A DNA stretch of 64,000 bases from the NCBI RefSeq assembly GCF_058153355.1, contig NZ_CM177019.1. One strand, given 5' to 3'. Both the position numbers and the translations under genes were made by a program. Below the pieces are notes generated by a model, which was given only the letters and a program-made list of their open reading frames with translations, did no database searches and was not told where the DNA came from. Shown piece by piece: positions 3,765 through 46,515 of this stretch (position 1 is its first letter; each line of letters opens with the position of its first letter).

Positions 3765-4712
<948 letters not shown>

Positions 4713-5652: not shown

Positions 5653-5656
5653 GATG

Positions 5657-5682
5657 AAGCCGGCGAATGCCGGCTTTTTTAA
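5657..5682 (+). terminator. intrinsic terminator of map
   Basis: aagccggc-gaat-gccggctt hairpin followed by TTTTTT, 5 nt after the map stop. Confidence 0.65.
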
Positions 5683-5695
5683 TACGATAATTTAA

Positions 5696-8386
<2,691 letters not shown>

Positions 8387-8416
8387 TGTGTTTACTGATA
8401 TGAAAAGAGTTTAACA

Positions 8417-9241
8417 ATGCAGCAGTTACAGAACATTATTGAAACCGCTTTTGAACGCCGTGCCGAGATCACGCCAGCCAATGCAGACACCGTTACCCGC
8501 GAAGCGGTAAATCAGGTGATCGCCCTGCTGGATTCCGGCGCACTGCGTGTAGCGGAAAAAATTGACGGTCAGTGGGTGACGCATCAGTGGTTGAAAAAAG
8601 CGGTGCTGCTCTCTTTCCGTATTAATGATAATCAGGTGATCGAAGGGGCAGAAAGCCGCTACTTCGACAAAGTGCCGATGAAATTCGCTAACTACGATGA
8701 AGCACGTTTCCAGAAAGAAGGCTTCCGCGTCGTGCCACCAGCGGCAGTACGTCAAGGTGCGTTTATCGCCCGTAACACCGTGCTGATGCCGTCTTACGTC
8801 AACATCGGCGCATATGTTGATGAAGGCACCATGGTTGATACCTGGGCGACCGTCGGTTCCTGTGCGCAGATTGGTAAAAATGTCCACCTTTCCGGTGGCG
8901 TAGGTATCGGCGGCGTGCTGGAGCCGCTGCAGGCTAATCCGACCATCATTGAAGATAACTGCTTCATCGGCGCGCGCTCTGAAGTGGTTGAAGGCGTAAT
9001 TGTCGAAGAAGGTTCCGTCATCTCTATGGGCGTATACATTGGTCAAAGCACCCGTATTTACGACCGTGAAACCGGCGAAATCCACTACGGTCGCGTTCCG
9101 GCGGGGTCTGTGGTTGTTTCAGGTAATCTGCCGTCGAAAGATGGCAAATACAGCCTCTACTGTGCGGTGATCGTTAAGAAAGTTGACGCGAAAACTCGCG
9201 GCAAAGTCGGCATTAACGAACTGCTACGCACCATCGACTAA
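8417..9241 (+). CDS. dapD: 2,3,4,5-tetrahydropyridine-2,6-dicarboxylate N-succinyltransferase
   Basis: 274-aa [51 protein letters not shown]..., hexapeptide-repeat transferase. Confidence 0.97.
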
Positions 9242-9553
9242 AAGTATGCACACGGGCAGCACGACGCTGCCCGATTGCTTTCTGGTTCAGAATAATTCGT
9301 CCTACTCATTCTTCTTCCCCTTTTTTAAATACTTTTTCATCTTGTTTCGGACTGTCATGTAATTCGCAAAACAAAGATAAATGTGCTAATCCATCCCATG
9401 GAATATCGCCACAATAAAGCAGGTAATTTTTTGATTTTTACGCCATGATAGAAGTCTGGAAGAAAAAGGCTTTCTGCGATCACAGTCGAGCCGGGCGGGC
9501 CAGGCCAAATGCTAAAATAAGCACAATTTACTGACTCATTTTGAGGTAACGCT

Positions 9554-9940
9554 ATGTACGACAATCTGAAAAGTCTGGGTATTACCAATCCTGAAGAAAT
9601 TGATCGTTACAGCCTCCGGCAGGAAGCCAACAACGATATTCTGAAAATCTATTTCCAGAAAGACAAAGGCGAGTTTTTCGCCAAGAGCGTGAAATTTAAA
9701 TATCCACGTCAGCGCAAAACGATAGTCGCTGATGGTGTGGGTCAAGGTTATAAAGAAGTACAGGAAATCAGCCCGAACCTGCGGTATATCATTGATGAAC
9801 TTGATCAAATCTGCCAGCGTGACCGCAGCGAGGTCGATCTTAAGCGTAAGATCCTCGACGATTTACGTCACCTGGAATCAGTCGTCACTAACAAAATCAG
9901 CGAGATTGAAGCCGATCTGGAAAAACTGACACGTAAATAA
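9554..9940 (+). CDS. yaeH: DUF3461 family protein YaeH
   Basis: 128-aa [45 protein letters not shown]...; synteny next to cdaR. Confidence 0.9.
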
Positions 9941-9967
9941 TCCCTGACTGACGGTTAGCTCGGGTAG

Positions 9968-9994
9968 TCTCCTCTCCCCTTCGGGGTGAGGAGA
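9968..9994. terminator. bidirectional hairpin between convergent yaeH and cdaR
   Basis: Inverted repeat tctcctctcccc-ttc-ggggtgaggaga (one mismatch) in the 88-bp convergent spacer. Confidence 0.5.
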
Positions 9995-10028
9995 ACAAGC
10001 CTGCCCCGCCTCGACCTTAACGCATAAC

Positions 10029-11186
10029 CTACCGCTCTTCATCTAGTTGCAGCGCCACATACAGCAGCAACCTGTCATCAAAATTGCCCAAATCAAGCCC
10101 GGTCAGTTCCGATATACGATTAAGCCGATACTCAAGAGTATTACGATGAATAAACAACGCCTTTGACGTTGCCAGCGGTTGCACATTGTGGCGAAACCAC
10201 GCCGCCAGCGTTCGCCGCAGCAAGCCGTTATTGTCCATCGCTTTCAGCCGCGCCAGCGGTCGCGCCAGTTCGTTGGCCTGCCAGTCGCCACGCAAACTGT
10301 CGAGCAACACAGGCAACATCAAATCCTGATAAAAATAGCAGCGACTTTCGGGCATCCGCTGTTTACCCACCACCATCGTCGTTTTCGCCGTACGATAGGA
10401 TCGGGCAATACTGCCAGGACCGGTAAAATAGTTGCCCAGCGAAACGCGAAAACGCAGCTGGCCGTACTCTTTCATGCGGGTAATCAGTTGTTCAACTCGC
10501 TTACGATGATCTTCTGCATCCCAGCGCCCAAAAGAGTTCAACGCCGGTTTCAACACCACCATTTCGGTCAGCGAGACAATCGCCACCAGATTATTACGCT
10601 CGGGCGTAGTCAGCGCGTTTTGCAGTTGCTGTAACTCCGCCATTGCGCTATCCACGCCAAGTTGACCGCTATCGACCTCAACAATAGCCACCACTCGCGG
10701 TTGATTGAGATCGATCCCCAACCGTTGCGCCCATTCAGTGAGTGCGGGAGTATTCTCCTCCGCCTGAATCAGGTTCATCACCAACTCTTCCCGCAAACGG
10801 CTATCCTGCGCCAACAGATGCATCAACCGCGACTGTTCCAGCATCATTTCAGCCGTCATGCAGACCAGTTCGCCATATTTACGCAGATTCTCTGGTTCAC
10901 CAGTCAAGCCGATTACGCCGACAATTTCACCTTCCAGCCGTAATGGTAGATTAATCCCCTGCCGCACACCGTGCAGATGACGTGCCACCGCGTCATCGAT
11001 ATCGACGACTCGTCCCTGTGAAAGTACCAGCAATGCACCTTCGTGCAATTCACCAATACGCTCACGATCGCCGCTGCCGATAATACGCCCGCGGGCATCC
11101 ATTACGTTAATATTGGTATCAATGATGCGCATGGTGCGCGCCACGATATCCTGCGCCATTTTGGTATCAAGATGCCAGCCAGCCAT
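10029..11186 (-). CDS. cdaR: carbohydrate diacid regulator (sugar diacid utilization regulator)
   Basis: ORF track frame 10029..11204; native start taken at MAGWHLDTKMAQDIVARTMRIIDTNINVMD (385 aa), C-terminal HTH; start choice among in-frame Met codons is uncertain. Confidence 0.9.
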   Translation of the reverse strand: MAGWHLDTKMAQDIVARTMRIIDTNINVMDARGRIIGSGDRERIGELHEGALLVLSQGRVVDIDDAVARHLHGVRQGINLPLRLEGEIVGVIGLTGEPENLRKYGELVCMTAEMMLEQSRLMHLLAQDSRLREELVMNLIQAEENTPALTEWAQRLGIDLNQPRVVAIVEVDSGQLGVDSAMAELQQLQNALTTPERNNLVAIVSLTEMVVLKPALNSFGRWDAEDHRKRVEQLITRMKEYGQLRFRVSLGNYFTGPGSIARSYRTAKTTMVVGKQRMPESRCYFYQDLMLPVLLDSLRGDWQANELARPLARLKAMDNNGLLRRTLAAWFRHNVQPLATSKALFIHRNTLEYRLNRISELTGLDLGNFDDRLLLYVALQLDEER

Positions 11187-11304
11187 AAGTCCTCCGTTAT
11201 GCACGGCTTAGCATAAGGAAGTACGTAACGTACGGCATTGTGCAAATGCCCAAAGGATGAGGAAGATGTATGGAGTTGTGGTGAAGTTCACAGATTGTAA
11301 GGAG

Positions 11305-11332
11305 AACCCCTTCCCGTTTTCAGGAAGGGGTT
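11305..11332. repeat. perfect 10-bp-arm palindrome just downstream of degP
   Basis: aaccccttcc-cgttttca-ggaaggggtt; 9 bp after the degP stop and upstream of cdaR; no U-tract on the degP strand. Confidence 0.6.
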
Positions 11333-11340
11333 GAGGAAGA

Positions 11341-12765
11341 TTACTGCATTAACAGATAGATGGTGCTGTCGCCGCGCTGAATATTCAGTGCCAGCACAGA
11401 CGGTTTGCTGTCGAGAACTTTACGCAGTTCAGCGATGTTTTTCACTGCCTGCTGGTTCGCACCAATAATCACATCACCTTTCTTCAGGCCGATCTGCGCA
11501 GCCGGAGTGCCCGTTTTCACGTTGTTCACCACCACGCCCTGATCTTTGCCTTTGTTGCTCATCTCAGCGCCTTCAATGCCGTTGAAGATGGTGCTGGAAT
11601 CAACCTGATTCTGGCTGCTCTGCTGCAGTTCCAGGTTCACGTTAACCTGCTTCCCGTCGCGCAGTAAGCCCAGGGTCAGTTTGCTGCCTACCGGCATAGT
11701 GCCCACCTGAGCACGCAGTGCGGCAAAGCTGCTGATTGGCTTACCGTTCAGTGAGGTGATCACATCACCCGCTTTAATGCCCGCTTTCGCGGCGGAAGAG
11801 TTCGGCAGAACCTGGCTTACGAAAGCACCGCGCTGGGCGTCAACTTTCATCGCTTTCGCCAGATCGGAGTTCAGCTCAGTCCCCATAATACCCAGCTCAC
11901 CGCGTTTCACCTGGCCGTATTCCACCATCTGCGAGGTCAGGTTTTTCACCATGTTGCTCGGGATAGCAAAACCGATACCGATGTTTCCGCCGTCCGGTGC
12001 GAGGATCGCGGTGTTGATACCAATCAGTTCGCCGTTCAGGTTAACCAGCGCGCCACCAGAGTTACCCCGGTTGATCGCTGCATCGGTCTGGATGAAGTTT
12101 TCGTAGTTTTCAGCGTTCAGGCCGCTACGTCCCAGCGCAGAGACAATCCCGGAAGTTACTGTCTCGCCCAGGCCGAACGGGTTACCAATTGCTACGGTGT
12201 AATCACCCACGCGCAGTGCATCAGAATCCGCCATCTTAATTGCGGTCAGGTTTTTCGGATTCTGGATCTGGATCAGCGCGATATCAGAGCGCGGATCTTT
12301 GCCAACCATCTTCGCGTCGAACTTACGACCATCGCTCAGCTGGACTTTAATCACCGTCGCGTTATCAACAACGTGGTTGTTGGTGACGACATAGCCTTTA
12401 TCGGCATCAATGATGACGCCGGAACCCAGCGCCATGAATTTTTGTTGCTGGCCGCCGCCATTACCGCCCTGGCCCCCCTGGCAGAACGGAGAGCTCTGGA
12501 ACGGAGAACCTTCCTGGCAGAACGGAGAATCATCACCGAAGAACTGCTGGAAATTACGCGGCATACGCGGCGTATTAACGGTTGTGCTACCTTCTACGTT
12601 AATGCTGACCACTGAAGGCATCACCTTTTCGAGCATTGGTGCAAGGCTTGGTATCTGCTGGGCTGTCGTTGCTGAAGAAGTCTCAGCCGCCGTTGCAGAG
12701 AGCGGAGATAACGCCAAACCTAAACTCAGAGCCAGTGCACTCAGTGCTAATGTGGTTTTTTTCAT
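11341..12765 (-). CDS. degP: periplasmic serine endoprotease DegP (HtrA)
   Basis: 474-aa ORF MKKTTLALSALALSLGLALSPLSATAAETSS..., signal peptide, trypsin-like domain and two PDZ domains. Confidence 0.97.
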   Translation of the reverse strand: MKKTTLALSALALSLGLALSPLSATAAETSSATTAQQIPSLAPMLEKVMPSVVSINVEGSTTVNTPRMPRNFQQFFGDDSPFCQEGSPFQSSPFCQGGQGGNGGGQQQKFMALGSGVIIDADKGYVVTNNHVVDNATVIKVQLSDGRKFDAKMVGKDPRSDIALIQIQNPKNLTAIKMADSDALRVGDYTVAIGNPFGLGETVTSGIVSALGRSGLNAENYENFIQTDAAINRGNSGGALVNLNGELIGINTAILAPDGGNIGIGFAIPSNMVKNLTSQMVEYGQVKRGELGIMGTELNSDLAKAMKVDAQRGAFVSQVLPNSSAAKAGIKAGDVITSLNGKPISSFAALRAQVGTMPVGSKLTLGLLRDGKQVNVNLELQQSSQNQVDSSTIFNGIEGAEMSNKGKDQGVVVNNVKTGTPAAQIGLKKGDVIIGANQQAVKNIAELRKVLDSKPSVLALNIQRGDSTIYLLMQ

Positions 12766-12810
12766 GTATTTCAGTCTCGATTAACAGATAACGCAAAATT
12801 GCTGTGTTCT

Positions 12811-12838
12811 TCAGATTCGTTTTATAGCGCGAAGTTCC
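12811..12838 (-). promoter_or_regulatory. sigma-E (RpoE) dependent degP promoter
   Basis: On minus strand GGAACTT (-35, complement of 12832-12838), 16-nt spacer, TCTGA (-10, complement of 12811-12815), about 50 nt upstream of the degP ATG. Confidence 0.75.
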
Positions 12839-12854
12839 GAACTAAAGTTTCTGC

Positions 12855-12890
12855 AAAAAGTAAAAATTTATTGTCCGTCTTTACAAAAGC
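12855..12890 (-). promoter_or_regulatory. candidate CpxR binding region upstream of degP
   Basis: GTAAA pentamers (minus strand tgtaaagacggacaataaatttttac) directly upstream of the sigma-E -35; half-site spacing not canonical. Confidence 0.4.
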
Positions 12891-12894
12891 CTGG

Positions 12895-14412
12895 TTATTG
12901 TTCTACGGCCATCAGACGTCGGTATTCATCCCACGCATAGAGGTCGGTCATACCGCTGATATAATCCTGTAGCAGGCGGCAGCGGTAATAATATTCCCAT
13001 AGCGGAAACTCAGGAGAATCTGACGGTAATTTACTGACAGCCTCGACATAGGCCAGCCGATGGCGCGTCGAGAGTTTGTGGAATAAGCGCGATTCAATAG
13101 GGAAACGTTTCACCCGTTCTTTTTCTACCAATTCAGTAAAGTCTGATAACGACAGGCTTAATAAAGGGCGATAAATCTCTAATAATCCGCTAATGACCCG
13201 ATAGCCCTGCAATTCAAGCTGCTCGACATCTGGATGGCTAAACACATGTTTTACAGCGACATTTTTATATAGCTTTAGAAGATCGCTGCATTCGCTGGCA
13301 TCTTCCAATAATGCATGATTAAACGTTCCGGCGAAAATCGCAGGCAGATTATCAATAAATCGTTGTGCCGCGTAGGGTACCAGTTTATTTAGGGTGTTTA
13401 CCCGTAAATACATAAAAAACTGATCTTCCGTACTGCGGCTTAAACTATTTGAGCGTGATTTTTCCCAGGCATTTTCAACCACCAGCGAAAAGAGCGAACC
13501 TTTCTCATGCTGGCCCCACGCTTCGTGCAAATGATGATAAAGCTGCTCAACGCTGAATATTCTTTTCTCTACCGCATCTTCAAGATCTGCCACACAATAG
13601 GAGATGTCGTCGGCAGCTTCCATAATCCACGTTAATGGAAAACGACTGTAAAGCGCCAAATTAAGTTCTTTACGCAACCGGGCAATATAGGCTTCTTCAG
13701 AAAGATAATAACCCGGCTTTTTCATTAAATAGTGATGTGTCTCAGGCGTTTCACCACGCCACCACGCCGGACGAGTATATTTTAAAATACCGCCAACCTG
13801 TGCCCAGGTGAGATTCATCCGCATCAATGTATGCACCAGACGAATGCCTTGTGCATTCCCCTCAAAATGACATAAGTCCTGACGTATTTTGCGCCGCAGC
13901 TCGTTAAGCGGTTCTTCCCCTTCCCGTAAACGTAATGCCGCCACGCTGCAGCGATCGTCAGTCAGAGGCTGGCTTTCGGCATCAGCCGGAAACAAACGCT
14001 GGCGAAACCAGTCATTTATCGCCGCTTCACCAAAATGACCAAACGGCGGATTGCCGATATCGTGCATCAGGCATGACATCTCAACAATACTTTCAAAGGG
14101 GCCGGTCAGTTCATCCAGACCATAATCTTCCAGTAATTTAAGCTCTTTCAGACGGCTTAAAATTTCTTTGGCGATGTAGCGCCCCACCTGCTGGACTTCC
14201 ATTGAATGGGTTAGACGCGTGCGCACGGCGGCATTTCGCTCCAGCGGAAAAACCTGGGTCTTTTGTTGCAGACGACGAATTGCCGGAGAGTTGATAATAC
14301 GCCCACGATCGCTCTCAAAGATTCGCAGGATCTCATGTTCGGTTTTAACGCCCTGTGGTGAACGGTAACGACGATGCCAGTTTATTTTTTTTCGGAAATC
14401 AATCTGTGCCAT
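12895..14412 (-). CDS. dgt: deoxyguanosine triphosphate triphosphohydrolase
   Basis: 505-aa [58 protein letters not shown]..., HD-domain dGTPase. Confidence 0.96.
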
Positions 14413-14495
14413 GTCCTCTCCCGCGTGAGAAATACGCTTCCCCGTAAGCGCATGGTAAACTATGCCTTCAAATCGGGCTTATCGCGAGTAAATCT

Positions 14496-15194
14496 ATGAA
14501 AATCGGCATCATTGGTGCAATGGAAGAAGAAGTTACGCTGCTGCGTGACAAAATCGAAAACCGCCAAACTATCAGTCTGGGCGGTTGCGAAATCTATACC
14601 GGCCAACTGAATGGAACCGAAGTTGCGCTTCTGAAATCGGGCATCGGTAAAGTTGCTGCGGCACTGGGTGCAACTCTGCTGTTGGAACACTGCAAGCCAG
14701 ATGTGATTATTAACACCGGTTCTGCCGGTGGCCTGGCGCCAACGCTGAAAGTGGGCGATATCGTTGTCTCGGACGAAGCACGTTATCACGACGCGGATGT
14801 CACGGCATTTGGTTACGAATACGGTCAGTTACCTGGCTGCCCGGCTGGCTTCAAAGCTGACGATAAACTGATCGCTGCCGCTGAGGCCTGCATTGCCGAA
14901 CTGAATCTTAACGCTGTACGTGGCCTGATTGTCAGCGGCGACGCTTTCATCAACGGTTCTGTTGGCCTGGCGAAAATCCGCCACAACTTCCCGCAGGCCA
15001 TTGCTGTAGAGATGGAAGCGACGGCAATCGCTCATGTCTGCCACAATTTCAACGTCCCGTTTGTTGTCGTACGCGCCATCTCCGACGTGGCCGATCAACA
15101 GTCTCATCTTAGCTTCGATGAGTTCCTGGCTGTTGCTGCTAAACAGTCCAGCCTGATGGTTGAGTCACTGGTGCAGAAACTGGCACATGGCTAA
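14496..15194 (+). CDS. mtnN: 5'-methylthioadenosine/S-adenosylhomocysteine nucleosidase
   Basis: 232-aa [43 protein letters not shown]... Confidence 0.97.
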
Positions 15195-15987
15195 GTCACT
15201 GTTCAGGGCGCTGGTCGCCCTGTCTTTTCTCGCCCCTCTGTGGCTCAACGCCGCACCGCGCGTCATCACGCTTTCACCCGCCAACACTGAACTTGCTTTT
15301 GCCGCCGGGATCACGCCGGTTGGGGTCAGCAGTTATTCCGACTACCCTCCACAAGCGCAAAAGATTGAGCAGGTTTCAACCTGGCAGGGGATGAATCTCG
15401 AACGCATTGTGGCCCTTAAACCCGATCTGGTGATTGCCTGGCGTGGAGGTAATGCCGAGCGGCAGGTTGACCAGTTAGCTTCGCTGGGAATAAAAGTGAT
15501 GTGGGTCGATGCGACAAGCATTGAACAAATTGCCAATGCGTTACGTCAACTGGCCCCCTGGAGCCCACAACCGGACAAGGCTGAACAAGCCGCGCAATCC
15601 CTGCTGGACCAGTACGCACAATTGAAAGCGCAATATGCTGATAAACCTAAAAAACGTGTTTTTCTGCAATTCGGCATTAATCCGCCATTTACCAGTGGAA
15701 AAGAATCGATTCAAAACCAGGTACTCGAAGTTTGTGGCGGAGAAAACATCTTTAAAGATAGCCGGGTTCCCTGGCCGCAAGTTAGCCGCGAACAGGTGTT
15801 AGCACGCGCGCCACAGGCAATTGTCATTACCGGCGGACCGGACCAAATTCCTAAAATCAAACAATACTGGGGCGAACAGCTCAAAATTCCCGTTATTCCT
15901 CTCACGAGTGACTGGTTTGAACGTGCAAGCCCACGTATTATCCTCGCTGCACAACAGCTCTGTAATGCGCTTTCACAGGTAGATTAG
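15187..15987 (+). CDS. btuF: vitamin B12 ABC transporter periplasmic binding protein
   Basis: ORF track frame begins at TTG 15160; native ATG at 15187 gives 266 aa [35 protein letters not shown]... with signal peptide; overlaps mtnN 3' end by 8 nt. Confidence 0.93.
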
Positions 15988-16024
15988 CGCCTGACCTTTT
16001 CAGGTGCTCAGTGGGGATTGAACA

Positions 16025-16648
16025 ATGCTCGTCTATTGGCTGGATATAGTCGGCACAGCGGTATTTGCCATCTCCGGCGTTTTGTTAGCCGGAAAATTGC
16101 GTATGGACCCTTTTGGTGTTCTGGTACTGGGCGTGGTTACCGCAGTAGGCGGCGGAACAATTCGCGACATGGCGCTGGATCACGGCCCGGTATTTTGGGT
16201 GAAAGATCCCACCGATCTGGTCGTTGCAATGGTAACCAGCATGCTGACGATCGTGCTGGTGCGCCAGCCAAGACGCTTACCGAAATGGATGTTGCCGGTG
16301 CTGGATGCCGTTGGTCTGGCGGTGTTTGTCGGCATTGGCGTGAATAAAGCCTTTAATGCGGAAGCCGGTCCGTTGATCGCGGTTTGTATGGGCGTCATTA
16401 CTGGCGTTGGCGGCGGGATCATTCGTGATGTACTGGCCCGCGAAATCCCCATGATTTTACGCACAGAAATCTACGCAACGGCCTGTATTATCGGCGGTAT
16501 TGTCCACGCTACGGCTTATTACACATTTTCCGTGCCCCTGGAAACAGCCAGTATGATGGGCATGGTCGTGACGCTATTGATTCGACTGGCGGCTATTCGT
16601 TGGCATCTTAAGCTACCGACGTTTGCGCTGGATGAGAATGGGCGTTGA
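16025..16648 (+). CDS. yadS: UPF0126 family inner membrane protein
   Basis: 207-aa hydrophobic ORF MLVYWLDIVGTAVFAISGVLLAGKLRMDPFGVLVLGVVTAVGGGTIRD..., duplicated glycine-rich TM motif. Confidence 0.9.
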   Translation: MLVYWLDIVGTAVFAISGVLLAGKLRMDPFGVLVLGVVTAVGGGTIRDMALDHGPVFWVKDPTDLVVAMVTSMLTIVLVRQPRRLPKWMLPVLDAVGLAVFVGIGVNKAFNAEAGPLIAVCMGVITGVGGGIIRDVLAREIPMILRTEIYATACIIGGIVHATAYYTFSVPLETASMMGMVVTLLIRLAAIRWHLKLPTFALDENGR

Positions 16649-16659
16649 AGAGAGGAGAT

Positions 16660-16682
16660 GTGCCGGATAGCTTATCCGGCAC
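16660..16682. terminator. bidirectional hairpin between convergent yadS and erpA
   Basis: gtgccggata-gct-tatccggcac palindrome in the 46-bp convergent spacer. Confidence 0.5.
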
Positions 16683-16694
16683 ACGAATAAGAGA

Positions 16695-17039
16695 TTAGAT
16701 GCTGAAGGAAGAACCGCAACCGCAGGTGCTTTTCGCGTTCGGGTTGGTCACGATGAAACGAGAACCTTCCAGACCTTCGGTATAGTCAACGGAACCGCCG
16801 ACCAGATATTGCAGGCTCATCGGGTCAACCACTAGGCCTACGCCCTGTTTTTCGATGGTCATATCGCCTTCGTTCACCTGATCATCAAAGGTGAAACCAT
16901 ACTGGAAGCCGCTACAACCGCCACCGGTGATATACACGCGTAATTTCAGATTCGGGTTATCTTCGTCAGCGATCAGGCTTTTAACTTTGTTGGCTGCTGC
17001 GTCGGTAAACTCCAGCGGCAGTGCTACGTCATCACTCAT
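16695..17039 (-). CDS. erpA: iron-sulfur cluster insertion protein ErpA
   Basis: ORF track frame 16695..17072 trimmed to 114 aa [49 protein letters not shown]...[10 protein letters not shown]-type carrier. Confidence 0.95.
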
Positions 17040-17120
17040 ATTTTGCTCCAAACGACATCGGCAATTGGGCAAATTCTAACCCAATAATAATCGCCATTAT
17101 CTAATACCCTGGTATTTCGT

Positions 17121-18560
<1,440 letters not shown>

Positions 18561-18766
18561 TCATACAAATAAGATGACGGCATTTTACTCGCACGTTCCA
18601 TGAAAATCCTTTGCAAAGCGTAATGTTTCAAATGCACAAAACTTTTATACTCTAAGAAATCAGGATTGTACCAGTACAAGCAACCTGACGTTTGACGAGT
18701 ATTTAACTTGTTATGAATAACATAGAATAGCAGCCATTCACTTTTTCTACGAATCAGGAACCCTCC

Positions 18767-20047
18767 ATGAGTAAGTCTGAAAATCTATACAGCGCAGCGC
18801 GCGAGCTGATCCCTGGCGGTGTGAACTCCCCTGTTCGCGCCTTTACTGGCGTGGGCGGCACTCCACTGTTTATCGAAAAAGCGGACGGTGCTTATCTGTA
18901 CGATGTTGATGGCAAAGCCTATATCGATTATGTCGGTTCCTGGGGGCCGATGGTGCTGGGCCATAACCATCCGGCGATCCGCAATGCCGTGATTGAAGCC
19001 GCCGAGCGTGGTTTAAGCTTTGGGGCACCGACCGAAATGGAAGTGAAAATGGCGCAACTGGTGACCGAACTGGTCCCGACCATGGATATGGTGCGCATGG
19101 TGAACTCCGGCACTGAAGCGACAATGAGTGCCATCCGCCTGGCCCGCGGTTTTACCGGTCGCGACAAAATCATTAAATTTGAAGGTTGTTACCACGGTCA
19201 CGCTGACTGCCTGCTGGTAAAAGCCGGTTCTGGCGCACTCACGTTAGGCCAGCCAAACTCGCCGGGCGTTCCGGCAGATTTTGCCAAACATACCTTAACC
19301 TGTACTTATAACGATCTGGCTTCTGTACGCGCCGCGTTTGAGCAATACCCGCAAGAGATTGCCTGTATTATCGTCGAGCCGGTGGCAGGCAATATGAACT
19401 GTGTTCCGCCGCTGCCAGAGTTCCTGCCGGGTCTGCGTGCGCTGTGTGACGAATTTGGCGCGTTGCTGATCATCGATGAAGTGATGACCGGTTTCCGCGT
19501 GGCGCTGGCTGGCGCGCAGGATTATTACGACGTGGTGCCAGACCTCACCTGCCTGGGCAAAATCATCGGCGGTGGAATGCCGGTAGGCGCATTCGGTGGT
19601 CGTCGTGATGTGATGGATGCGCTGGCCCCAACCGGTCCGGTCTACCAGGCGGGTACGCTTTCCGGTAACCCGATTGCGATGGCAGCCGGTTTCGCCTGTC
19701 TGAATGAAGTCGCGCAGCCGGGCGTTCACGAGACGCTGGATGAGCTGACAACACGTCTGGCAGAAGGTCTGCTGGAAGCGGCAGAAGAAGCGGGAATTCC
19801 ATTGGTCGTTAACCACGTTGGCGGCATGTTCGGTATTTTCTTTACCGACGCCGAGTCCGTGACGTGCTATCAGGATGTGATGGCCTGCGACGTCGAGCGC
19901 TTTAAGCGTTTCTTCCATATGATGCTGGACGAAGGTGTTTACCTGGCACCGTCAGCGTTTGAAGCGGGCTTTATGTCTGTGGCGCACAGCATGGAAGATA
20001 TCAATAACACCATCGATGCTGCACGTCGGGTGTTTGCGAAGTTGTAA
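18767..20047 (+). CDS. hemL: glutamate-1-semialdehyde 2,1-aminomutase
   Basis: 426-aa [52 protein letters not shown]..., class III aminotransferase. Confidence 0.97.
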
Positions 20048-20054
20048 TGATTTT

Positions 20055-20081
20055 GCCTCGCCCACCGGGCGAGGCATTTTA
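20055..20081. terminator. hairpin terminator between convergent hemL and fhuB
   Basis: gcctcgccc-accg-ggcgaggc followed by ATTTTATT; fills almost the whole 34-bp spacer. Confidence 0.6.
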
Positions 20082-22064
20082 TTAACGGCTCTGCTTTCTC
20101 AACAAATAGATAAAATACGGCGCGCCGATAAAGGTCGACAGCAGCCCCGCTGGGATCTGGAATGGAAACAGCACCATCCGCCCACACCAGTCAGCGAACA
20201 CCAGCAACAATCCCCCCACCAGCGCCGAAATCACAATATGCGGCATCGTCCGTCGAAAGCCCATCATCCGCGCAATATGCGGTGCCATTAAACCAACAAA
20301 ACTCAACGGTCCAATGGTCATTGTCGCGGTCGCCGTCAGGCAAGCCGCTAACAGCAGCAGCGCAATTCGCGTCGGCGTCAGCGCCATTCCCACGGCTCGT
20401 GCGGTATCACCTCCCAGCGGTAAAATGGTCAGCCAGCGGCGGCACAGCGGGGTAATCGCCAGCAAAATCACCATCACAATTCCGGTGCGCCAGACCTGCG
20501 CATCGGTCGCGTTGTAGGTCGAACCGGAAATCCAGGTCAGAACTTGCGCCATTCGCGGGTCACCACTTGCCTGCAACATCATCAAAAGCATGGTGAACGC
20601 GGTACTTAAGGCCATCCCCGCCAGTAACATGCGGTGTGGGGAAAATCCACCGCGTCCGGCAGCGATCATAATGATCAACAGCGTCACCGCCGCGCCGAAA
20701 CTGCCCGCGGGTAACAGCCAGCCAAAGGCATTACCCGGCACCAAAAACAGCATCAACACCACACCAAACGCCGCGCCGGAACTAATCCCCAGCACTTCCG
20801 GGCTTGCCATCGGGTTGCCGGTCAGCCGCTGAATAATACAGCCCGCCACCGCCAGCATGACGCCCGCAAACAGCGCCGCCATAATTCGCGGCCAGCGCCA
20901 AGGCATCAAATCCTCGAGCAACGCCCCGCTCGCCCACGTCCAGCCGTGCGCATCACGACCAAACGACAGCGCCACCACCACAGCCATCAACAGCAGCACG
21001 CCGCCCGCGAGGGCAAACGCCAGCACATGTTGGCGTTCAGCAGCGACACGATCGTTCACCTTCATATCCGGCGCGCTAATGCAGCGTAAACGCGGCAGCA
21101 GCCACAGCAGCAGCGGCGCACCGATGAGCGCAGTGACCGAACCGGTAGAAACTTCCATCCACACGCGAGTCAGCCAGAGGATGATTTGATCGGAAAGCCA
21201 GAGGATCAGCGCACCAATCAGTGACGCCAGCAGCAGTCTTGGCAGCAGACGCCGCGCCCCCAGCATTTTTGCCAGCAGCGGCGCGAACAACCCGATAAAG
21301 CCGATAATCCCCACCGCGTTCACCAGCAGCGCACTGATGACTATCGCCAGCGACAGCGCCGCCAGACGCGCGAGCGACAAGGCCAGCCCGAGATTGCGCG
21401 CCACGCCATCATCAAGCCCCATCAGGGTTAACGGACGAAGTAGCAGTAACGTCAGCATCACGCCGCCCAGCAACTGCGGCCATAAACGCTCAACGCCACC
21501 CCAGTCGGTTTGCGTCAGCGTTCCGGTGCTCCACAGGAACATGCTTTGTAGCTGGTCGTGATGGAAGATAACCAGTAACTGATTGATTGCCCCGCAATAA
21601 AGGCTCACCACAAGCCCCGCGAGGATCAGCGTTACCGGAGAAAGCCGTTTCCCCCACGCGACGCCAAAGACAATTAAGCCAACCACACAAGCCCCTGCCA
21701 ATGCAGCAAACTGGCTCGCCATCGCACCAGGGATCGCCCAGAGTGTAGTGACAGTAATTCCCAGTTGCGCACCAGTTGCGACGCCCAACGTGGTCGGCTC
21801 CGCCAGCGGGTTACGCAGCACTTGCTGAAATAGCACGCCCACCAGCCCCAGACCCGCGCCCACCAGCAGCGAAATCGCCAGACGCGGCAGCAAGCTGTAG
21901 TGAAAAATCATCTGCTCGATGACGTCAATATCCGGCGACCAGGCAGCCTGCGCCCACTGGCTACGCGGCAGCGCCTGAGAGAAGTTCATCCAGGTGAGCA
22001 CCGCTGCGGCAACCACCAACAGCGCCAGCAATAATGCCGGGAAAAGCGCAATACGTTTACTCAC
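20082..22064 (-). CDS. fhuB: ferric hydroxamate ABC transporter permease
   Basis: 660-aa duplicated permease ORF MSKRIALFPALLLALLVVAAAVLTWMNF...; 4-nt overlap with fhuD. Confidence 0.96.
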   Translation of the reverse strand: MSKRIALFPALLLALLVVAAAVLTWMNFSQALPRSQWAQAAWSPDIDVIEQMIFHYSLLPRLAISLLVGAGLGLVGVLFQQVLRNPLAEPTTLGVATGAQLGITVTTLWAIPGAMASQFAALAGACVVGLIVFGVAWGKRLSPVTLILAGLVVSLYCGAINQLLVIFHHDQLQSMFLWSTGTLTQTDWGGVERLWPQLLGGVMLTLLLLRPLTLMGLDDGVARNLGLALSLARLAALSLAIVISALLVNAVGIIGFIGLFAPLLAKMLGARRLLPRLLLASLIGALILWLSDQIILWLTRVWMEVSTGSVTALIGAPLLLWLLPRLRCISAPDMKVNDRVAAERQHVLAFALAGGVLLLMAVVVALSFGRDAHGWTWASGALLEDLMPWRWPRIMAALFAGVMLAVAGCIIQRLTGNPMASPEVLGISSGAAFGVVLMLFLVPGNAFGWLLPAGSFGAAVTLLIIMIAAGRGGFSPHRMLLAGMALSTAFTMLLMMLQASGDPRMAQVLTWISGSTYNATDAQVWRTGIVMVILLAITPLCRRWLTILPLGGDTARAVGMALTPTRIALLLLAACLTATATMTIGPLSFVGLMAPHIARMMGFRRTMPHIVISALVGGLLLVFADWCGRMVLFPFQIPAGLLSTFIGAPYFIYLLRKQSR

Positions 22065-22951
22065 GCTTTACCTCCGATGGCGTTATCCAGAATACGCACA
22101 AAGTGCATTGCCGAGAGCGTCGCACCATAAAACCAGACTGCAGGTACGCGCTGAAAGCGTCCGGCACGGACAAACGGCATGGCCTGCCACAGCGGGGTTG
22201 CCATTAGTGCGTCCATGTCTTTGCTGTTGTCGTGATCAAAACAGAGCACATCAACGTCCTTATACGCTGCCAGACGATCGATACTGACGGCAGTACTGCC
22301 CCAGAAGTTGGTTTCCCCTTGCCAGGCATTTGGGATGCCGTACCCATCAAGAATTTCCTGGAACAAGCTGTTTGGACCGAAGACCAGCATATGGCGCGGA
22401 TCGATAAGTGTCGTCAGTAATAACGGACGCGCACCACGCTTCACAAAGCGGGGTTTCATGCTGCGGATAAAGTCTTCATAGTGCGCTAAATGCGTTTCTG
22501 CTGCGCTTTGCAGGTTAAGTAAATCTGCCATTTCCGTCAGCGATTTACGCGCCATCGCCAGCGGCTGTTTGCCGTCGCTGAAGTTAAATCCGCGCCCAGG
22601 CGCAATGCGTGCCAGCATTTCTGGTGAAGGGCCATACCCTGCCGACCAGACCATAAACGACGGCTTCATTTCGGTCAGCAGTTCAAGGTTAGGTTCTGTC
22701 CGCAAACCGACGTCAATCACCGATTCAGGTAATGGCGGTTCGCTGACCCACAGGCGATAGTTGATGGTATCCGCCACGCCGTAAGGTACGATGCCGAGCG
22801 CCAGCAGTAATTCCACCGGCAACCACTCCAGCGCCACAATACGATTGGGATCAATAGCCGCCGCGCGGGCGGTATTCATCTGCCATAACAACGGAGAAAG
22901 CGCCATCGCCGTTAACAGTCGACGGCGCGAAATAAGAGGTAAGCCGCTCAT
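22061..22951 (-). CDS. fhuD: ferric hydroxamate periplasmic binding protein
   Basis: 296 aa MSGLPLISRRRLLTAMALSPLLWQMNTARAAAIDPNRIVALEWLPVELLLALG... (second in-frame Met of the track ORF). Confidence 0.95.
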   Translation of the reverse strand: MSGLPLISRRRLLTAMALSPLLWQMNTARAAAIDPNRIVALEWLPVELLLALGIVPYGVADTINYRLWVSEPPLPESVIDVGLRTEPNLELLTEMKPSFMVWSAGYGPSPEMLARIAPGRGFNFSDGKQPLAMARKSLTEMADLLNLQSAAETHLAHYEDFIRSMKPRFVKRGARPLLLTTLIDPRHMLVFGPNSLFQEILDGYGIPNAWQGETNFWGSTAVSIDRLAAYKDVDVLCFDHDNSKDMDALMATPLWQAMPFVRAGRFQRVPAVWFYGATLSAMHFVRILDNAIGGKA

Positions 22952-23748
22952 CAATAAACAAAACTCACAGGTGCAGCACCCGCCGGATGCGGCAAAATAC
23001 CCATCGGGATGCCATAAATCATTTCGAGGGTTTCGCCGCGCATAATTTCCGCAGGCGTTCCCTGAGCAATCATTTCACCGCCGCGCAGGGCGACCAGATA
23101 ATCACAGTAACGCGCTGCCATATTGATATCGTGCAGTACGGCAATGACCGTCAGACCACGTTCCTGACTTAAACGGTGCACCAGCGCCAGCACATCAACC
23201 TGGTGGGCGATATCCAGCGCCGAGGTCGGTTCGTCCAGCAACAGACAACGGCTATCCTGCGCCACCAGCATGGCGATCCACGCCCGCTGACGTTCACCGC
23301 CTGAGAGGCTATCGACCAGCCGATGCGCCAGCGGTTTTAAGCCAACCAGCGAGATAGCCTCTTCGACCTTTTCGCGATCTGCCGCGCCAAAGCGCCCCAG
23401 CGCGCCATGCCACGGGTAACGACCAATCGCCACCAGTTCACGCACCGTCATCCCTTCTGCCGGAGGAAGCTGCTGCGGCAAATAAGCCACTTTGCGAGCA
23501 AACGCTTTGCTGCTCCAGCTTTCCAGTGGCTGGGCATCAAGAAGAATCTCCCCTTCCGACGGCGGTTGGTGACGGCCAAGCATTTTGAGCAGAGTGGATT
23601 TACCAGAACCGTTGTGACCAATCAGACCGGTCACTTTCCCGGCAGGAAAGGTTAACGACAGCGGATGCAAAAGCGTGCGCCCGGGCACACGAAAGGAGAT
23701 ATTACGCAGTGCAAAAGTGGTATCGGAATGATTCGTGTATTCCTGCAT
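22951..23748 (-). CDS. fhuC: ferric hydroxamate ABC transporter ATP-binding protein
   Basis: ORF track frame 22951..23790 trimmed to 265 aa MQEYTNHSDTTFALRNISFRVPGRTLLHPLSLTFPAGKVTGLIGHNGSGKST..., Walker A and LSGGERQR signature. Confidence 0.95.
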   Translation of the reverse strand: MQEYTNHSDTTFALRNISFRVPGRTLLHPLSLTFPAGKVTGLIGHNGSGKSTLLKMLGRHQPPSEGEILLDAQPLESWSSKAFARKVAYLPQQLPPAEGMTVRELVAIGRYPWHGALGRFGAADREKVEEAISLVGLKPLAHRLVDSLSGGERQRAWIAMLVAQDSRCLLLDEPTSALDIAHQVDVLALVHRLSQERGLTVIAVLHDINMAARYCDYLVALRGGEMIAQGTPAEIMRGETLEMIYGIPMGILPHPAGAAPVSFVY

Positions 23749-23798
23749 AACAGCCAACTTGTGAAACGGGCACGGAAATCCGTGCCCCAAAAGAGAAA

Positions 23799-26042
23799 TT
23801 AGAAACGGAAGGTTGCGGTTGCAACGACCTGACGTTCTGCGCCCCAGAAGCAGCCATAGGTATTAAAGCAGCTGGCGACGTATTCACGATCGAACAGGTT
23901 GTTGACATGCAGCGCCACGTTGGAGCCAGCCATGCCGACCCGCGCCAGATCATAACGCACTAACGCATCCACGACCGTATAACTTCCCACTTTAAAGGAG
24001 TTAGCCGGATCACCATAGCTGGAGCCAGTATAACGACCACCAGTACCCAGCGTCAGGCCAGAAAGCGGACCATCAAAGAAGGTGTAGTCAGCCCACAGCG
24101 AAGCCATATGTTTTGGCACCTGCGCAGGCGTATTGCCTTTGTAGGTAGTATCGGTGGTGTATTCCGCATCGGTGTAAGTATAAGAACCTACTACGTTAAC
24201 ACTCGCCGACAGCGCCGCTTTCGCTTCGATTTCTACGCCACGAGCGCGGATTTCACCACCTTCAACCGAGAAGAAGGAACCCTCAGGGTCCGCCATCAGG
24301 TTGTTGGTTTTAGTGAGATTATACACAGCACCAGTAACCACAATTGGGCGATCTTCCGGTACATATTTCACGCCGACCTCATACTGCTTACCTTTAGACG
24401 GCGCAAAAATATTACCATCCTTCCCAACTTGTGAAGAAGGTTCAAACGATTCGCTATAGCTGAAGTAAGGTGTTACACCATTATCAAACAGGTAGTTAAC
24501 ACCACCACGCCAGGTAAACTGTTTGTCATCACGTTTATCGGTCGTCCCTTCAACGCGGTTATGAGACTCTTGATCCGCCCAGTCATAACGACCGCCCAGG
24601 GTGACCAGCACTTTATCCCACTGCGCCTGATCCTGAACATAAACACCCGTTTGTTTCTGCTTATTCAAAATGCGGTAAGGACCGGAGTTTGCCGGATCTT
24701 TCGCATTGAAGTCGAAATCGGTATTCACCGGATTGTACAGATCGAGCAGCGGTACGGAGTCGTCGTAACCAAACCAGGCGTTGATGTCATTACGCATACG
24801 CATAAAGTCGACGCCGGTCAGCAGAGTGTGGTCGATATCGCCAGTGGCAAACTTGCTCTGCAACTGGGTATCAACGGAGAAGTTTTGCAGCTTCTCATCA
24901 TCAACGACGTATTTACGTGCCAGGTAGTGACCTTTATCGGCTGGCGCTAAAGCGGCACACTGTTTGCTGTAAGCATTCGCCGGATCGGAGCAGACGCCGT
25001 AACCATAAACGCTGTTTTGCGAGGTTTTGTTTTCAGCAAAGCGCAGGTTCTGACGCACAGTAAAGGTGTCGTTAAATTCGTGATCGAAGCTGTAGCCCAC
25101 CATCTTCTCATTACGAGAATAGGTGTTGTTCTTCGCCCCTTCGTTAAAATCTGTCGGCAGACGCTTACCGTTCGGCAGCGGCTCAACGGTTCCCTCTTTC
25201 GGCAGCCAGCCGTAATAACCGGTTTCCGGCTCGTTCTGGAAGTAAGAAAGGAAGGTGAAATTGGTTTTATCATCCGGACGCCAGGTAAACGCTGGCGCAA
25301 TGGCATAACGCTGCTCTTCCGCGCCCTTTTGCTGGGCATTGGCAGAGCGCGCAAGACCGGTCAGGCGATAAGAGTAAACACCGTCATCATCCAGCGCATC
25401 GCTAAAGTCAAAACCGGTCTGGAACAGGCTGTCAGTACCGGCTTTAAACTGAACTTCTTTCAGCGGTTCAGTAGTCGGACGCTTGCTGACCATATTCAAC
25501 AGGCCGCCAGGACTGCTTTTACCGTAAAGCACTGAAACCGGGCCACGCATAATTTCAGCGCGTTCCAGCATATACGGGTCAATGACCGCATCGTTATAGA
25601 AGTTGCCCTGCAACTTCAGGCCATTCAGATAGTTATTCTGGCTTTGGCCTTCTGCCGCAAAGCCGCGAATGATCAGGTGGTCATAGGTGTTGGATGCGCC
25701 ACGCGTACCAACAGAGACACCCGGCGTGTAGCTAAGCGCCTCTTTTACTGACTTCGGCTGATGCAGCGCCATCTCTTCGGCGGTCACAACAGAAATAGAC
25801 TGTGGCACTTTTTGAATCGGTGTATCGGTTTTGGTGCCGGTAGCGGACTGTCGCGCCGCAATAGTTGCAGCTGGCCCCCATGCGCTTTCTTGCGGCGCTG
25901 GTGCAGCGGTAACGGTGATAGTGTCTTCTTTCGGTTCAACCGCTGCCTGTGCATAAACAGACATGCCGCTAACCGCTGTGGCTACTACAACTGCAATTTT
26001 ACGCAGTGAGTGTTTTGGCTGAGCAGTTTTGGAACGCGCCAT
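23799..26042 (-). CDS. fhuA: TonB-dependent ferrichrome outer membrane transporter
   Basis: 747-aa ORF MARSKTAQPKHSLRKIAVVVATAVSGMSVYAQAAVEPKEDTITV... ending ATATFRF; differs from my recollection of K-12 FhuA at a few residues. Confidence 0.97.
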   Translation of the reverse strand: MARSKTAQPKHSLRKIAVVVATAVSGMSVYAQAAVEPKEDTITVTAAPAPQESAWGPAATIAARQSATGTKTDTPIQKVPQSISVVTAEEMALHQPKSVKEALSYTPGVSVGTRGASNTYDHLIIRGFAAEGQSQNNYLNGLKLQGNFYNDAVIDPYMLERAEIMRGPVSVLYGKSSPGGLLNMVSKRPTTEPLKEVQFKAGTDSLFQTGFDFSDALDDDGVYSYRLTGLARSANAQQKGAEEQRYAIAPAFTWRPDDKTNFTFLSYFQNEPETGYYGWLPKEGTVEPLPNGKRLPTDFNEGAKNNTYSRNEKMVGYSFDHEFNDTFTVRQNLRFAENKTSQNSVYGYGVCSDPANAYSKQCAALAPADKGHYLARKYVVDDEKLQNFSVDTQLQSKFATGDIDHTLLTGVDFMRMRNDINAWFGYDDSVPLLDLYNPVNTDFDFNAKDPANSGPYRILNKQKQTGVYVQDQAQWDKVLVTLGGRYDWADQESHNRVEGTTDKRDDKQFTWRGGVNYLFDNGVTPYFSYSESFEPSSQVGKDGNIFAPSKGKQYEVGVKYVPEDRPIVVTGAVYNLTKTNNLMADPEGSFFSVEGGEIRARGVEIEAKAALSASVNVVGSYTYTDAEYTTDTTYKGNTPAQVPKHMASLWADYTFFDGPLSGLTLGTGGRYTGSSYGDPANSFKVGSYTVVDALVRYDLARVGMAGSNVALHVNNLFDREYVASCFNTYGCFWGAERQVVATATFRF

Positions 26043-44498: not shown

Positions 44499-45350
44499 GT
44501 GTTAATTATCGAAACCCTGCCGTTGCTGCGTCAGCAAATTCGCCGCCTGCGAATGGAAGGCAAACGCGTGGCGCTGGTGCCTACTATGGGTAACCTGCAC
44601 GATGGTCATATGAAGCTGGTCGACGAAGCCAAAGCCCGCGCCGATGTGGTCGTCGTCAGTATTTTCGTTAACCCAATGCAGTTTGACCGCCCGGAAGATC
44701 TGGCTCGCTACCCACGCACCTTGCAGGAAGACTGCGAGAAGCTAAACAAACGTAAAGTGGATCTGGTTTTCGCTCCCTCGGTAAAAGAGATCTATCCGAA
44801 CGGTACAGAAACCCACACCTATGTCGATGTTCCAGGCCTTTCCACCATGCTGGAAGGTGCCAGCCGTCCAGGACATTTTCGCGGCGTATCGACCATCGTC
44901 AGCAAACTGTTCAACCTGGTCCAGCCGGACATCGCCTGCTTCGGTGAAAAGGATTTTCAGCAACTGGCGCTGATCCGCAAAATGGTTGCCGACATGGGCT
45001 TTGATATTGAGATTGTCGGAGTGCCGATTATGCGCGCTAAAGACGGTCTGGCGCTCAGTTCCCGTAACGGCTATCTGACGGCGGAACAACGTAAAATTGC
45101 GCCGGGTCTGTACAAGGTCTTAAGTTCAATTGCCGACAAATTGCAGGCTGGCGAACGGGATCTCGATGAAATTATTGCTATTGCCGGGCAAGAACTGAAT
45201 GAAAAAGGTTTCCGTTCCGATGATATTCAGATTCGCGATGCCGACACCTTGCTGGAAATCGCTGAAAACAGCAAACGAGCTGTGATTCTGGTAGCCGCCT
45301 GGCTTGGCGATGCTCGCCTGATCGACAACAAAATGGTCGAACTGGCGTAA
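44499..45350 (+). CDS. panC: pantothenate synthetase
   Basis: 283-aa ORF (GTG start at 44499) [41 protein letters not shown]... Confidence 0.96.
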
Positions 45351-45355
45351 TACTT

Positions 45356-45482
45356 ATACTCTAAATAATTCAAGTTGCAGGAAGGCGGCAAGCGAGTGAA
45401 TCCCCAGGAGCTTACATAAGTAAGTGACTGGGGTGAGCGAACGCAGACGCAGCACATGCAACTTGAAGTATGACGAGTATAA
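45356..45482 (+). repeat. ERIC (enterobacterial repetitive intergenic consensus) element
   Basis: Contains gtgaatccccaggagcttacataagtaagtgactggggtgagcgaacgcagacgcagcacatgcaacttgaagtatgacgagtata, matching the ERIC core inverted repeat; lies in the panC-rpnC spacer. Confidence 0.8.
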
Positions 45483-45570
45483 CTGGCGCTACGGCTGATG
45501 GCGCCAATTATTAATTTGCCCCACGTCATGACGATGACGTCTGTAAGCGGTTATTCATACCGCAGACAAC

Positions 45571-46515
45571 TTAGTTAATTAGCTTATCAATCTCAGCAAG
45601 AGGTAAATTTGCCATCTCTGCAACGTCTTCCCGAGACATTCCTTTACTCAGAAGACGCAGGGCGAATTCTTGCCTTTCCTCCTGTCTTCCCAGCTGAATC
45701 CCCTTCTCAATCCCCTTCTCAATCCCCTTCTCAATCCCCTTCTCAATTCCCTTCTCAATTCCCTTCTCTTCAAACCACTGCGCCAACGTCATCATAGACT
45801 CCCCTCCCGTTTCCCTGTCTCTCACCACACCATAAAACAAATCCGCTTGTTCAGTATGACCGCGTTGCAGCATATAGTTTTGCATGGCAACTAACTGACT
45901 TCCGCTAGTGTACCCTTCGTCAATCAGCGTGACCAGTTGCTCCAGCAATAACATTAAGTCGCGCTGGCGAATATGTTTTTGCAACAGTTCGAGAATCGCA
46001 ATCCGCCGATGTTGCATGATTTCGTCATCCGGTGTGATAGTGATATCCACCAGCGGGAAAGGACTGTTATAGACGCGTCGCGCCAGCTCCGGCGAGTAAA
46101 ACATATCAAACCAGCACATTGAGAGTGGATAAGGCGTGGCCTCGCCCTGATAAAACAAAATCGGCACCACCAGCGGCAGCTTATCGTGGTCAGCCTCCAG
46201 ATGCCGGTGCATGGCGGCAATAGAATAACGCATCATACGAAACGCCATTTTTTTGTCCGGCTTGCTTTGGTGTTCAATCACAACATGTAGATAGCCCGTA
46301 TTACCCTGCATTTGCACGGAATAGAGCACGTCAGTGCTGTGCCCTTTCAGGCTTTCTTCAATAAAACTCCCCGACTCAAGATGCAGCGTGTCGAGGTCAC
46401 ACAGTTCGCGTAGCTCCGCTGGCAAATGGATATCCAGAAAGTCGCGAGCCGTTTCCACGTGCATTAAAAATTGTTTAAACACCGCATCATGCGGTGTGGT
46501 ACTCGGTGCATCCAT
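45571..46515 (-). CDS. rpnC: recombination-promoting nuclease Rpn family (YhgA-like, PD-(D/E)XK transposase_31)
   Basis: 314-aa ORF MDAPSTTPHDAVFKQFLMHVETARDFLDIHLPAELRELCDLDTLHLESGSFIEESLKGHSTDVLYSVQMQ...; position between panC and panD as for yadD/rpnC; carries an (EKGI)6 repeat. Confidence 0.88.
   Translation of the reverse strand: MDAPSTTPHDAVFKQFLMHVETARDFLDIHLPAELRELCDLDTLHLESGSFIEESLKGHSTDVLYSVQMQGNTGYLHVVIEHQSKPDKKMAFRMMRYSIAAMHRHLEADHDKLPLVVPILFYQGEATPYPLSMCWFDMFYSPELARRVYNSPFPLVDITITPDDEIMQHRRIAILELLQKHIRQRDLMLLLEQLVTLIDEGYTSGSQLVAMQNYMLQRGHTEQADLFYGVVRDRETGGESMMTLAQWFEEKGIEKGIEKGIEKGIEKGIEKGIQLGRQEERQEFALRLLSKGMSREDVAEMANLPLAEIDKLIN
45697..45768 (-). repeat. in-frame 12-bp tandem repeat (6 copies) inside rpnC
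   Basis: aatccccttctc x4 then aattcccttctc x2 on plus strand, encoding EKGIEKGIEKGIEKGIEKGIEKGI on the minus strand. Confidence 0.95.

Follow-up and report, generated by a model that had tools for sequence, protein, structure and literature searches.

The 220-bp spacer between panC and rpnC in the DNA analysed here (a single stretch of 64,000 nucleotides, hereafter the window) contains a complete ERIC, a non-autonomous miniature inverted-repeat element (MITE) and an ordinary, already known mobile palindromic repeat of enteric bacteria. To judge from filled and empty alleles of the locus, it integrated at a TA dinucleotide at the foot of what is presumed to be the panBC terminator hairpin, and its presence or absence at panC is a polymorphism common to several Escherichia species. 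We put at about 85% the probability that its identity, its origin as a mobile insertion and its co-transcription with panBC hold jointly. The features concerned are as follows (positions in the window).

44499-45350, + strand: panC (pantoate--beta-alanine ligase), from the open reading frame and the RefSeq annotation of orthologous loci
45354-45379: left terminal inverted repeat, the A/T-rich arm TATACTCTAAATAATTCAAGTTGCA, from an inverted-repeat search
45355-45356: left copy of the duplicated TA target, from the filled/empty comparison
45355-45481: complete ERIC (IRU/RU-1), TATACTC...GAGTATA, 127 bp, from the match to the consensus
45396-45439, + strand: conserved central core, ERIC1R site plus ERIC2 site, from exact primer matches
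45402-45433: central inverted repeat CCCCAGGAGCTTAC / GTAAGTGACTGGGG, 14-nt arms
45457-45482: right terminal inverted repeat TGCAACTTGAAGTATGACGAGTATA, pairing with the left arm in the folds of both strands
45480-45481: right copy of the TA duplication, with which the terminator stem begins (its first two bases), from the filled/empty comparison
45484-45506, + strand: terminator-like G+C-rich hairpin (8 pairs, 5 of them G-C), then ATTATTAATT
45571-46515, - strand: rpnC, from the open reading frame and the RefSeq annotation of orthologous loci

Identity and anatomy of the element

The family to which the element belongs, known as ERIC, IRU or RU-1, is said to have been described by Sharples and Lloyd in 1990, Hulton et al. 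in 1991 and Wilson and Sharp in 2006. All of its testable defining features are present in the element, which shares with the family a length of 127 bp, an identical core, TA termini, a TA duplication and terminal inverted repeats, an intergenic position beside the 3' end of a gene, and occurrence in multiple copies. Aligned without gaps over its full length, it matches the 127-nt E. coli RU-1/ERIC consensus at 113/127 positions (89%) and the Salmonella SeRU-1 at 119/127 (94%), both references being taken from table 1a of Delihas (2007; PMC2759123). It is thus nearer to the Salmonella copy than to the E. coli consensus, and otherwise differs from the family in nothing essential. The + strand of the element carries GTGAATCCCC...GGGGTGAGCG, and the consensus printed in PMC2759123 corresponds to the - strand sense. 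Because Rfam has no ERIC model, family membership rests on this published consensus.

The string aagtaagtgactggggtgagcg, which an earlier note on this DNA had quoted as part of a characteristic central inverted repeat, lies at 45418-45439 and is identical to primer ERIC2; the reverse complement of primer ERIC1R is found, again exactly, directly ahead of it at 45396-45417. Sequences of the two primers have been printed together in 246 published papers. The 44-nt core that they form, GTGAATCCCCAGGAGCTTACATAAGTAAGTGACTGGGGTGAGCG, occurs once in the window (45396-45439) and was not matched in any of 100 shuffles of the sequence, and the central inverted repeat could be located within it. At the ends of the element, the 26-nt arms of the terminal inverted repeat are 85% complementary. 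The only open frame through the 127 bp is the palindrome's own, of 42 codons, and no transposase is encoded, as befits a non-autonomous element. The near-consensus ERIC that the earlier note had recognized in the spacer is thereby borne out by a full-length consensus match and exact primer sites; its interval, 45356-45482, is off by one base from ours, a shift that is tolerable because the duplicated TA makes the ends ambiguous.

The element lies wholly inside the spacer, which extends from 45351 to 45570 between the two convergent genes. Only 4 nt separate it from the panC stop codon (TAA, 45348-45350), and 89 bp separate it from the rpnC stop codon (45571-45573). The K-12 spacer measures 73 bp, in line with the ~73 bp that the earlier note had set against the 220 bp seen here. 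Of the excess of 147 bp, 125 are due to ERIC, the remaining ~22 bp forming a separate indel nearer rpnC. Searched by megablast with an ERIC-containing query, E. coli genomes give a median of 7 places and up to 12, and the element is one of a set of very homogeneous copies whose presence varies by strain (124/127 identity to the copy near ybfA). Wilson and Sharp (2006) are reported to have listed 14 additional ERIC loci that vary among strains.

Two other places in the window resemble ERIC. A second, diverged copy lies at 3633-3743 on the - strand (78% over 111 nt). Towards its 3' end it shares sequence with the initial ~47 nt of a full-length match to the Rfam family CssrA, "Chromosome-encoded Shigella sRNA A" (3570-3679, 136.6 bits); given this overlap, the start of the CssrA sRNA appears to lie inside an ERIC remnant. 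A 57-bp sequence at 18646-18702, TATACTCTAAGAAATCAGGATTGTACCAGTACAAGCAACCTGACGTTTGACGAGTAT, has ERIC-like termini (10 nt on the left and ~31 nt on the right) and is possibly an internally deleted ERIC.

Folding of the RNA, which the earlier note had suggested, yields the long stem-loop of an imperfect palindrome on both strands: the + strand is predicted to form a single long imperfect hairpin (MFE -54.2 kcal/mol, z = -8.6), and the - strand reaches an MFE of -47.0 kcal/mol (z = -6.4). When the 41 pairs of the + strand were projected on five ERICs (the window copy, that of E. albertii, the E. coli consensus, SeRU-1 and the copy near ybfA), 39-41 of the 41 were preserved in each sequence, and two double changes were compensatory. 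Owing to G.U pairs, all five fold better in the panC sense, the + strand (-61.8 vs -45.2 kcal/mol for the consensus).

We consider it extremely improbable that the ERIC is an independent gene for a small RNA or a small protein. This reading can draw on a 100-aa ORF (45227-45529, - strand) that runs through the element, antisense to the panC 3' end, and contains YTRHTSSCMCCVCVRSPQSLTYVSSWGFTRLPPSCNLNYLEY, the 42-aa "RU-1 translated peptide" of Delihas (2007; PMC2759123), as well as on sub-threshold matches to sRNA families. On the other hand, promoter-like sites occur at chance frequency, with none on the + strand upstream of the element, no Rfam family was found in the ERIC region at gathering thresholds, and no RefSeq feature is annotated inside the panC-rpnC spacer of the ERIC-bearing genomes compared. 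Two candidates were set aside on inspection. The ORF, which overlaps panC in antisense and coincides with the open frame of the palindrome, is most likely no gene; as for an independent promoter, the promoter scan returned one weak site on the - strand, which equals the chance rate. Under permissive conditions, the Vibrio RNA AS5 family (V_AS5) matched at 49.8 bits against a gathering score of 96 (E = 4e-10), and Ysr49, isrH and CssrA at 11.5 to 18.3 bits. These matches, partial or full-length, are all under the gathering thresholds, so that the element is a member of none of the four families, which to judge from the alignments probably contain ERIC-like sequence themselves.

Other bacterial repeats have a similar architecture. 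Like ERIC, Correia/NEMIS of Neisseria and RUP of the pneumococcus are small elements without coding capacity that end in TA, have terminal inverted repeats and duplicate their target; they are also co-transcribed as hairpins that are possible RNase substrates (PMC2229807), although they have no sequence relation to ERIC. An IS630-type transposase has been proposed for RUP. According to a review (PMC2229807), transposase-driven movement of these elements is not known to have experimental support.

Insertion site, distribution and age

The empty alleles of K-12, CFT073, ETEC4071, AH19E045, R7 and C1 read AAT(A/G)CT-TA-ACTGGCGC, whereas the filled allele of the window reads ACT-TA-TACTC...GAGTA-TA-ACTGGCGC, a net gain of 125 bp with doubling of the TA. 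The insertion difference from K-12 that the earlier note had proposed is therefore real: K-12 lacks ERIC and has an intact empty site, ACT-TA-ACTGG. The check for target-site features that it had recommended gave a TA duplication and a TA at both termini; terminal inverted repeats, target-site duplication and 5'-TA-3' termini are listed among the properties of ERIC (Delihas 2008, PMC2229807, table 1). A single TA, clean and identical (ACT-TA-ACT), was seen in 10/10 empty alleles from several species.

The idea that the insertion is strain-specific did not survive a census of 5,426 complete E. coli genomes, in which ERIC occupies the same TA in 426-435 (~8%), the site being empty in ~92%. The short 127-bp allele accounts for 18 genomes (matched in a single alignment piece at >=99% identity, nine of them identical over 230 bp), and a long allele of 198 bp with a 71-bp module for ~409; the long form is found in O157:H7, O55:H7, OkiPb01680 and many unrelated isolates. 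A scan of one genome per species, with the invariant terminator sequence as the pattern, gave seven hits:

E. albertii: short ERIC at the same TA, with 2 differences from the window copy
Escherichia sp. E1V33, of a cryptic clade: long ERIC form at the same TA
E. whittamii, MOD1-EC7003, E69 and SCPM-O-B-8794: empty site
CALXDF010000219.1, a contig filed under an uncultured Oscillospiraceae MAG: empty site in a panC-rpnC junction of the E. coli type

The last of these is almost certainly Escherichia contamination of an Oscillospiraceae bin.

Lengthened ERICs, in which ~70 bp are inserted at a constant internal position, have been described previously. Here, the 71-bp module (ACAAATTCG...CTCTCATT) follows ...GCGAGTG in the long form and is missing from the window copy. 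The long ERICs at the panC site share its TA target, with arms 97.7-98.5% identical to the window copy; the arms are similar, and the module occupies the same internal position, in the copy that E2348/69 has at rpiA-argP and in those that other strains have near ybfA. The module occurs once per genome, in 615 genomes. In the rpiA-argP copy of E2348/69 (positions 1158-1400 of locus L017), the 71-bp module is on the left and GGGGTGAGCG is followed by non-ERIC sequence beginning ACAAATCCGCATGGAGCGGATTT, which looks like a second inserted module, the excerpt stopping before the right arm.

As regards the host, the core genes of the window (4000-24000 and 33000-57000) are only 96.3-97.9% identical to each of ~5,420 complete E. 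coli genomes, so that the window must belong to a divergent lineage of Escherichia that the genome collection does not contain; we would guess that it is cryptic clade I-like. The pan region is ~91% identical to K-12, and panBC is unusually diverse within E. coli (93.7% between O157 and K-12). Separately, four genomes without ERIC (CFT073, ETEC4071, R7 and C1) have in their spacer a second, incomplete copy of the 3' end of rpnC, for which the annotation gives either "transposase, incomplete" or a hypothetical protein of 65-71 aa; this copy corresponds to the second antitoxin gene, rpnC-Ss (PMC10400941).

The element is much less diverged between lineages than the sequence in which it sits. Relative to the window copy, ERICs at the site show 2-3 differences in 131 positions, compared with 24-36 in the adjacent 400 nt of panC. 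Identity across lineages is ~98% for ERIC and ~91% for its flanks, and across species the divergence of ERIC is about four to six times below that of its flanks. At the rate of the flank, so few differences in ERIC would be improbable for E. albertii (2/131 vs 36/400, P = 4e-4), E1V33 (P = 0.004), O157 (2/131 vs 26/400, P = 0.008) and OkiPb01680 (P = 0.04). However, the copy near ybfA, at another locus, is equally close to the window copy, and because of this the sequence alone fits both an old, constrained element and a young one that was inserted repeatedly.

A single SNP, just past the terminator stem, is the only linked variation that tracks the presence of ERIC: window position 45507 is an A in 5/6 ERIC-bearing alleles and a G in 10/10 empty alleles and in E. 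albertii. This pattern hints that the filled alleles descend from a common source and that the tracts exchanged by recombination were very short. The idea that a complete haplotype was introgressed together with its ERIC is not supported, the panC 3' end of O157 being K-12-like (98.9% over 90 nt) despite its ERIC.

Because E. albertii and a cryptic-clade Escherichia also have an ERIC at this TA, the element might be ancestral at the site and have been lost from K-12 and most E. coli by precise excision, in which case the window would have retained it rather than gained it. Long palindromes are readily deleted between flanking direct repeats, which counts in favour of such a history. Nevertheless, we regard it as unlikely. 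Many recurrent losses would be required, E. whittamii and MOD1-EC7003 are empty, and the contrast between ~98% identity in the element and ~91% in the flanks fits recent arrival or exchange better. Moreover, the empty alleles, clean at the site in 10/10 cases from several species and devoid of any imprecise footprint, argue against repeated loss.

Insertion is the history that we favour, and the low divergence could be pressed further. The copies at the panC site and near-identical ones at other polymorphic loci such as ybfA could form a young ERIC subfamily, mobile now or very recently, that strongly prefers TA targets where a terminator hairpin begins; E. coli, E. albertii and the cryptic clade would then each have acquired the element at this site by a separate insertion. 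We mention this scenario as a long shot. The same data can alternatively be read as a sign that purifying selection on the 3'-UTR hairpin is unusually strong, even though most strains do without it.

Probable co-transcription and possible effects on panBC and rpnC

The hairpin directly 3' of ERIC is presumed, on the basis of its predicted structure, to be the panBC terminator. As a consensus match, the call is at the chance rate (1 found, 0.6 expected) and the T-tract is poor; on the other side, the 24-nt sequence ACTGGCGCTACGGCTGATGGCGCC is invariant in 10/10 aligned Escherichia loci, which had been retrieved by similarity and not by pattern. In a predicted fold of 185 nt, the ERIC hairpin and the terminator-like hairpin stand side by side and are independent. 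The target TA makes up the first two bases of the 10-bp terminator stem of K-12 (-20.8 kcal/mol), and because it was duplicated the stem was rebuilt after insertion; in the window it is weakened to -15.4 kcal/mol by one mismatch, the A at 45507, just after GGCGCC in the 3' arm, producing a C.A mismatch in the predicted stem.

Since ERIC is situated between the panC stop codon and this terminator-like hairpin, it is most likely co-transcribed with panBC. The panBC transcripts would then run through the element and end after it, with a 127-nt imperfect hairpin in their 3' UTR ahead of the terminator, and the likeliest consequence would be a modest change in the 3'-end decay of panBC mRNA. Whether any measurable effect on mRNA results is a question on which we lean somewhat towards the negative, while taking the possibility seriously. 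Should there be an effect, we incline towards protection of the 3' end, because panC reads the better-folding strand with its A/U-rich arm on the 5' side. This arm, CUCUAAAUAAUUC, lies 5' when the element is read with panC; the best RNase E-like motif, GA|AUU, is found on the other strand. As we read it, the arrangement that De Gregorio et al. are said to have proposed in 2005 as exposing an RNase E site is the opposite of the panC-sense one. In our reading, panC thus probably sees the non-destabilising orientation of ERIC, and the hairpin, if anything, would be protective.

The remark in the earlier note that ERIC RNA can alter the stability of neighbouring mRNAs rests on work in Yersinia, in which, as summarized in reviews (including PMC2229807), ERICs are co-transcribed and have orientation-dependent effects on the upstream mRNA. 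In one orientation near stop codons, according to these summaries, ribosomes keep the hairpin from forming, an RNase E site in the 3' terminal repeat is laid bare, and the level of upstream mRNA falls. The window element has in common with the Yersinia ERICs (De Gregorio et al. 2005) the family, the position next to a stop codon and a presumably co-transcribed hairpin; effects on mRNA stability have been reported for this arrangement, though in a different genus.

In any case, ERIC cannot matter for panBC expression in general because ~92% of E. coli genomes lack it. This absence from most genomes also favours a neutral passenger: a selfish element or a relic, transcribed or silent, with no measurable effect on panBC or rpnC. 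Such an insertion could persist because the terminator stem is kept whole by the duplicated TA, and the coexistence of short, long and empty alleles is in agreement with this. The copies at the site are nonetheless far less diverged than their flanks, unlike what would be expected of old neutral sequence, a difference that recent arrival would also explain. Neutrality is a strong alternative to an effect on mRNA, to which we give nearly even odds.

On the other side of the spacer, transcripts of rpnC that read through its 3' end would carry the - strand of the element. In MG1655, rpnC and panC are among the convergent pairs with overlapping transcripts (PMC12288877), and the insertion probably makes the zone of overlap longer by 125 bp of structured sequence. 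ERIC could act mainly on the rpnC side, with its A/U-rich arm GAAUUAUUUAGAG placed 3' in read-through transcripts. By our own motif reading this arm holds an RNase E-like motif (GA|AUU). Folding of the - strand is likewise good (-47 kcal/mol), and a scan for a convincing - strand terminator between rpnC and ERIC found none. An unmasked RNase E site in the 3' terminal repeat is also what the reviews describe for the Yersinia ERICs. The extra 125 bp of sense/antisense overlap with panC mRNA would, in addition, furnish more double-stranded RNase III substrate and alter the interference between rpnC and panC. We judge this reading to be decidedly unlikely: ERIC is 89 nt away from the rpnC stop codon, so that the ribosome-unmasking model is not directly applicable, and the overlap data come from K-12 only, which is without ERIC.

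The earlier note had also drawn attention to the vicinity of the element and a gene for a recombination-promoting nuclease. The proximity appears to be coincidental: rpn genes show no signs of transposition, and the element abuts panC and is 89 bp from rpnC. Zhong et al. (2023; PMC10400941) found rpn genes to be without terminal inverted repeats, target-site duplications or evidence of transposition, and read the Rpn proteins as toxin-antitoxin and antiphage systems. On the same grounds, namely the lack of transposition signs in rpn genes and the position of ERIC against panC, we found no support for RpnC as the transposase of ERIC. Beyond their common, structurally variable spacer, we found no link between ERIC and RpnC at this locus.

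The 3' region of rpnC is itself variable. At 45688-45770 of the window, ~6 copies of a 12-bp tandem repeat, CCCCTTCTCAAT and variants of it, encode KGIE repeats, about four units more than in K-12 and O157 and two more than in 2017-02-2CC. They represent the strain-variable repeat of four amino acids, already known from Zhong et al. (2023, PMC10400941), by which the pairing of RpnC-S and RpnC-L is tuned.

Significance of the locus

The immediate consequence of these data concerns annotation: an ERIC repeat should be entered for the spacer, which need not be searched for a gene or a regulatory site. To our knowledge, no transposase has been assigned to ERIC. The low divergence of the element restates in this respect an old puzzle, namely why ERICs are so conserved and what moves them; if the copies at panC did belong to a young mobile subfamily, the site would be a handle for finding the ERIC transposase. 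Finally, the empty, 127-bp and 198-bp forms make up a natural series of three alleles at one TA, located between a biosynthetic operon and a convergent toxin-antitoxin/defence gene, which offers a convenient test bed for the claim that ERIC hairpins influence mRNA decay.
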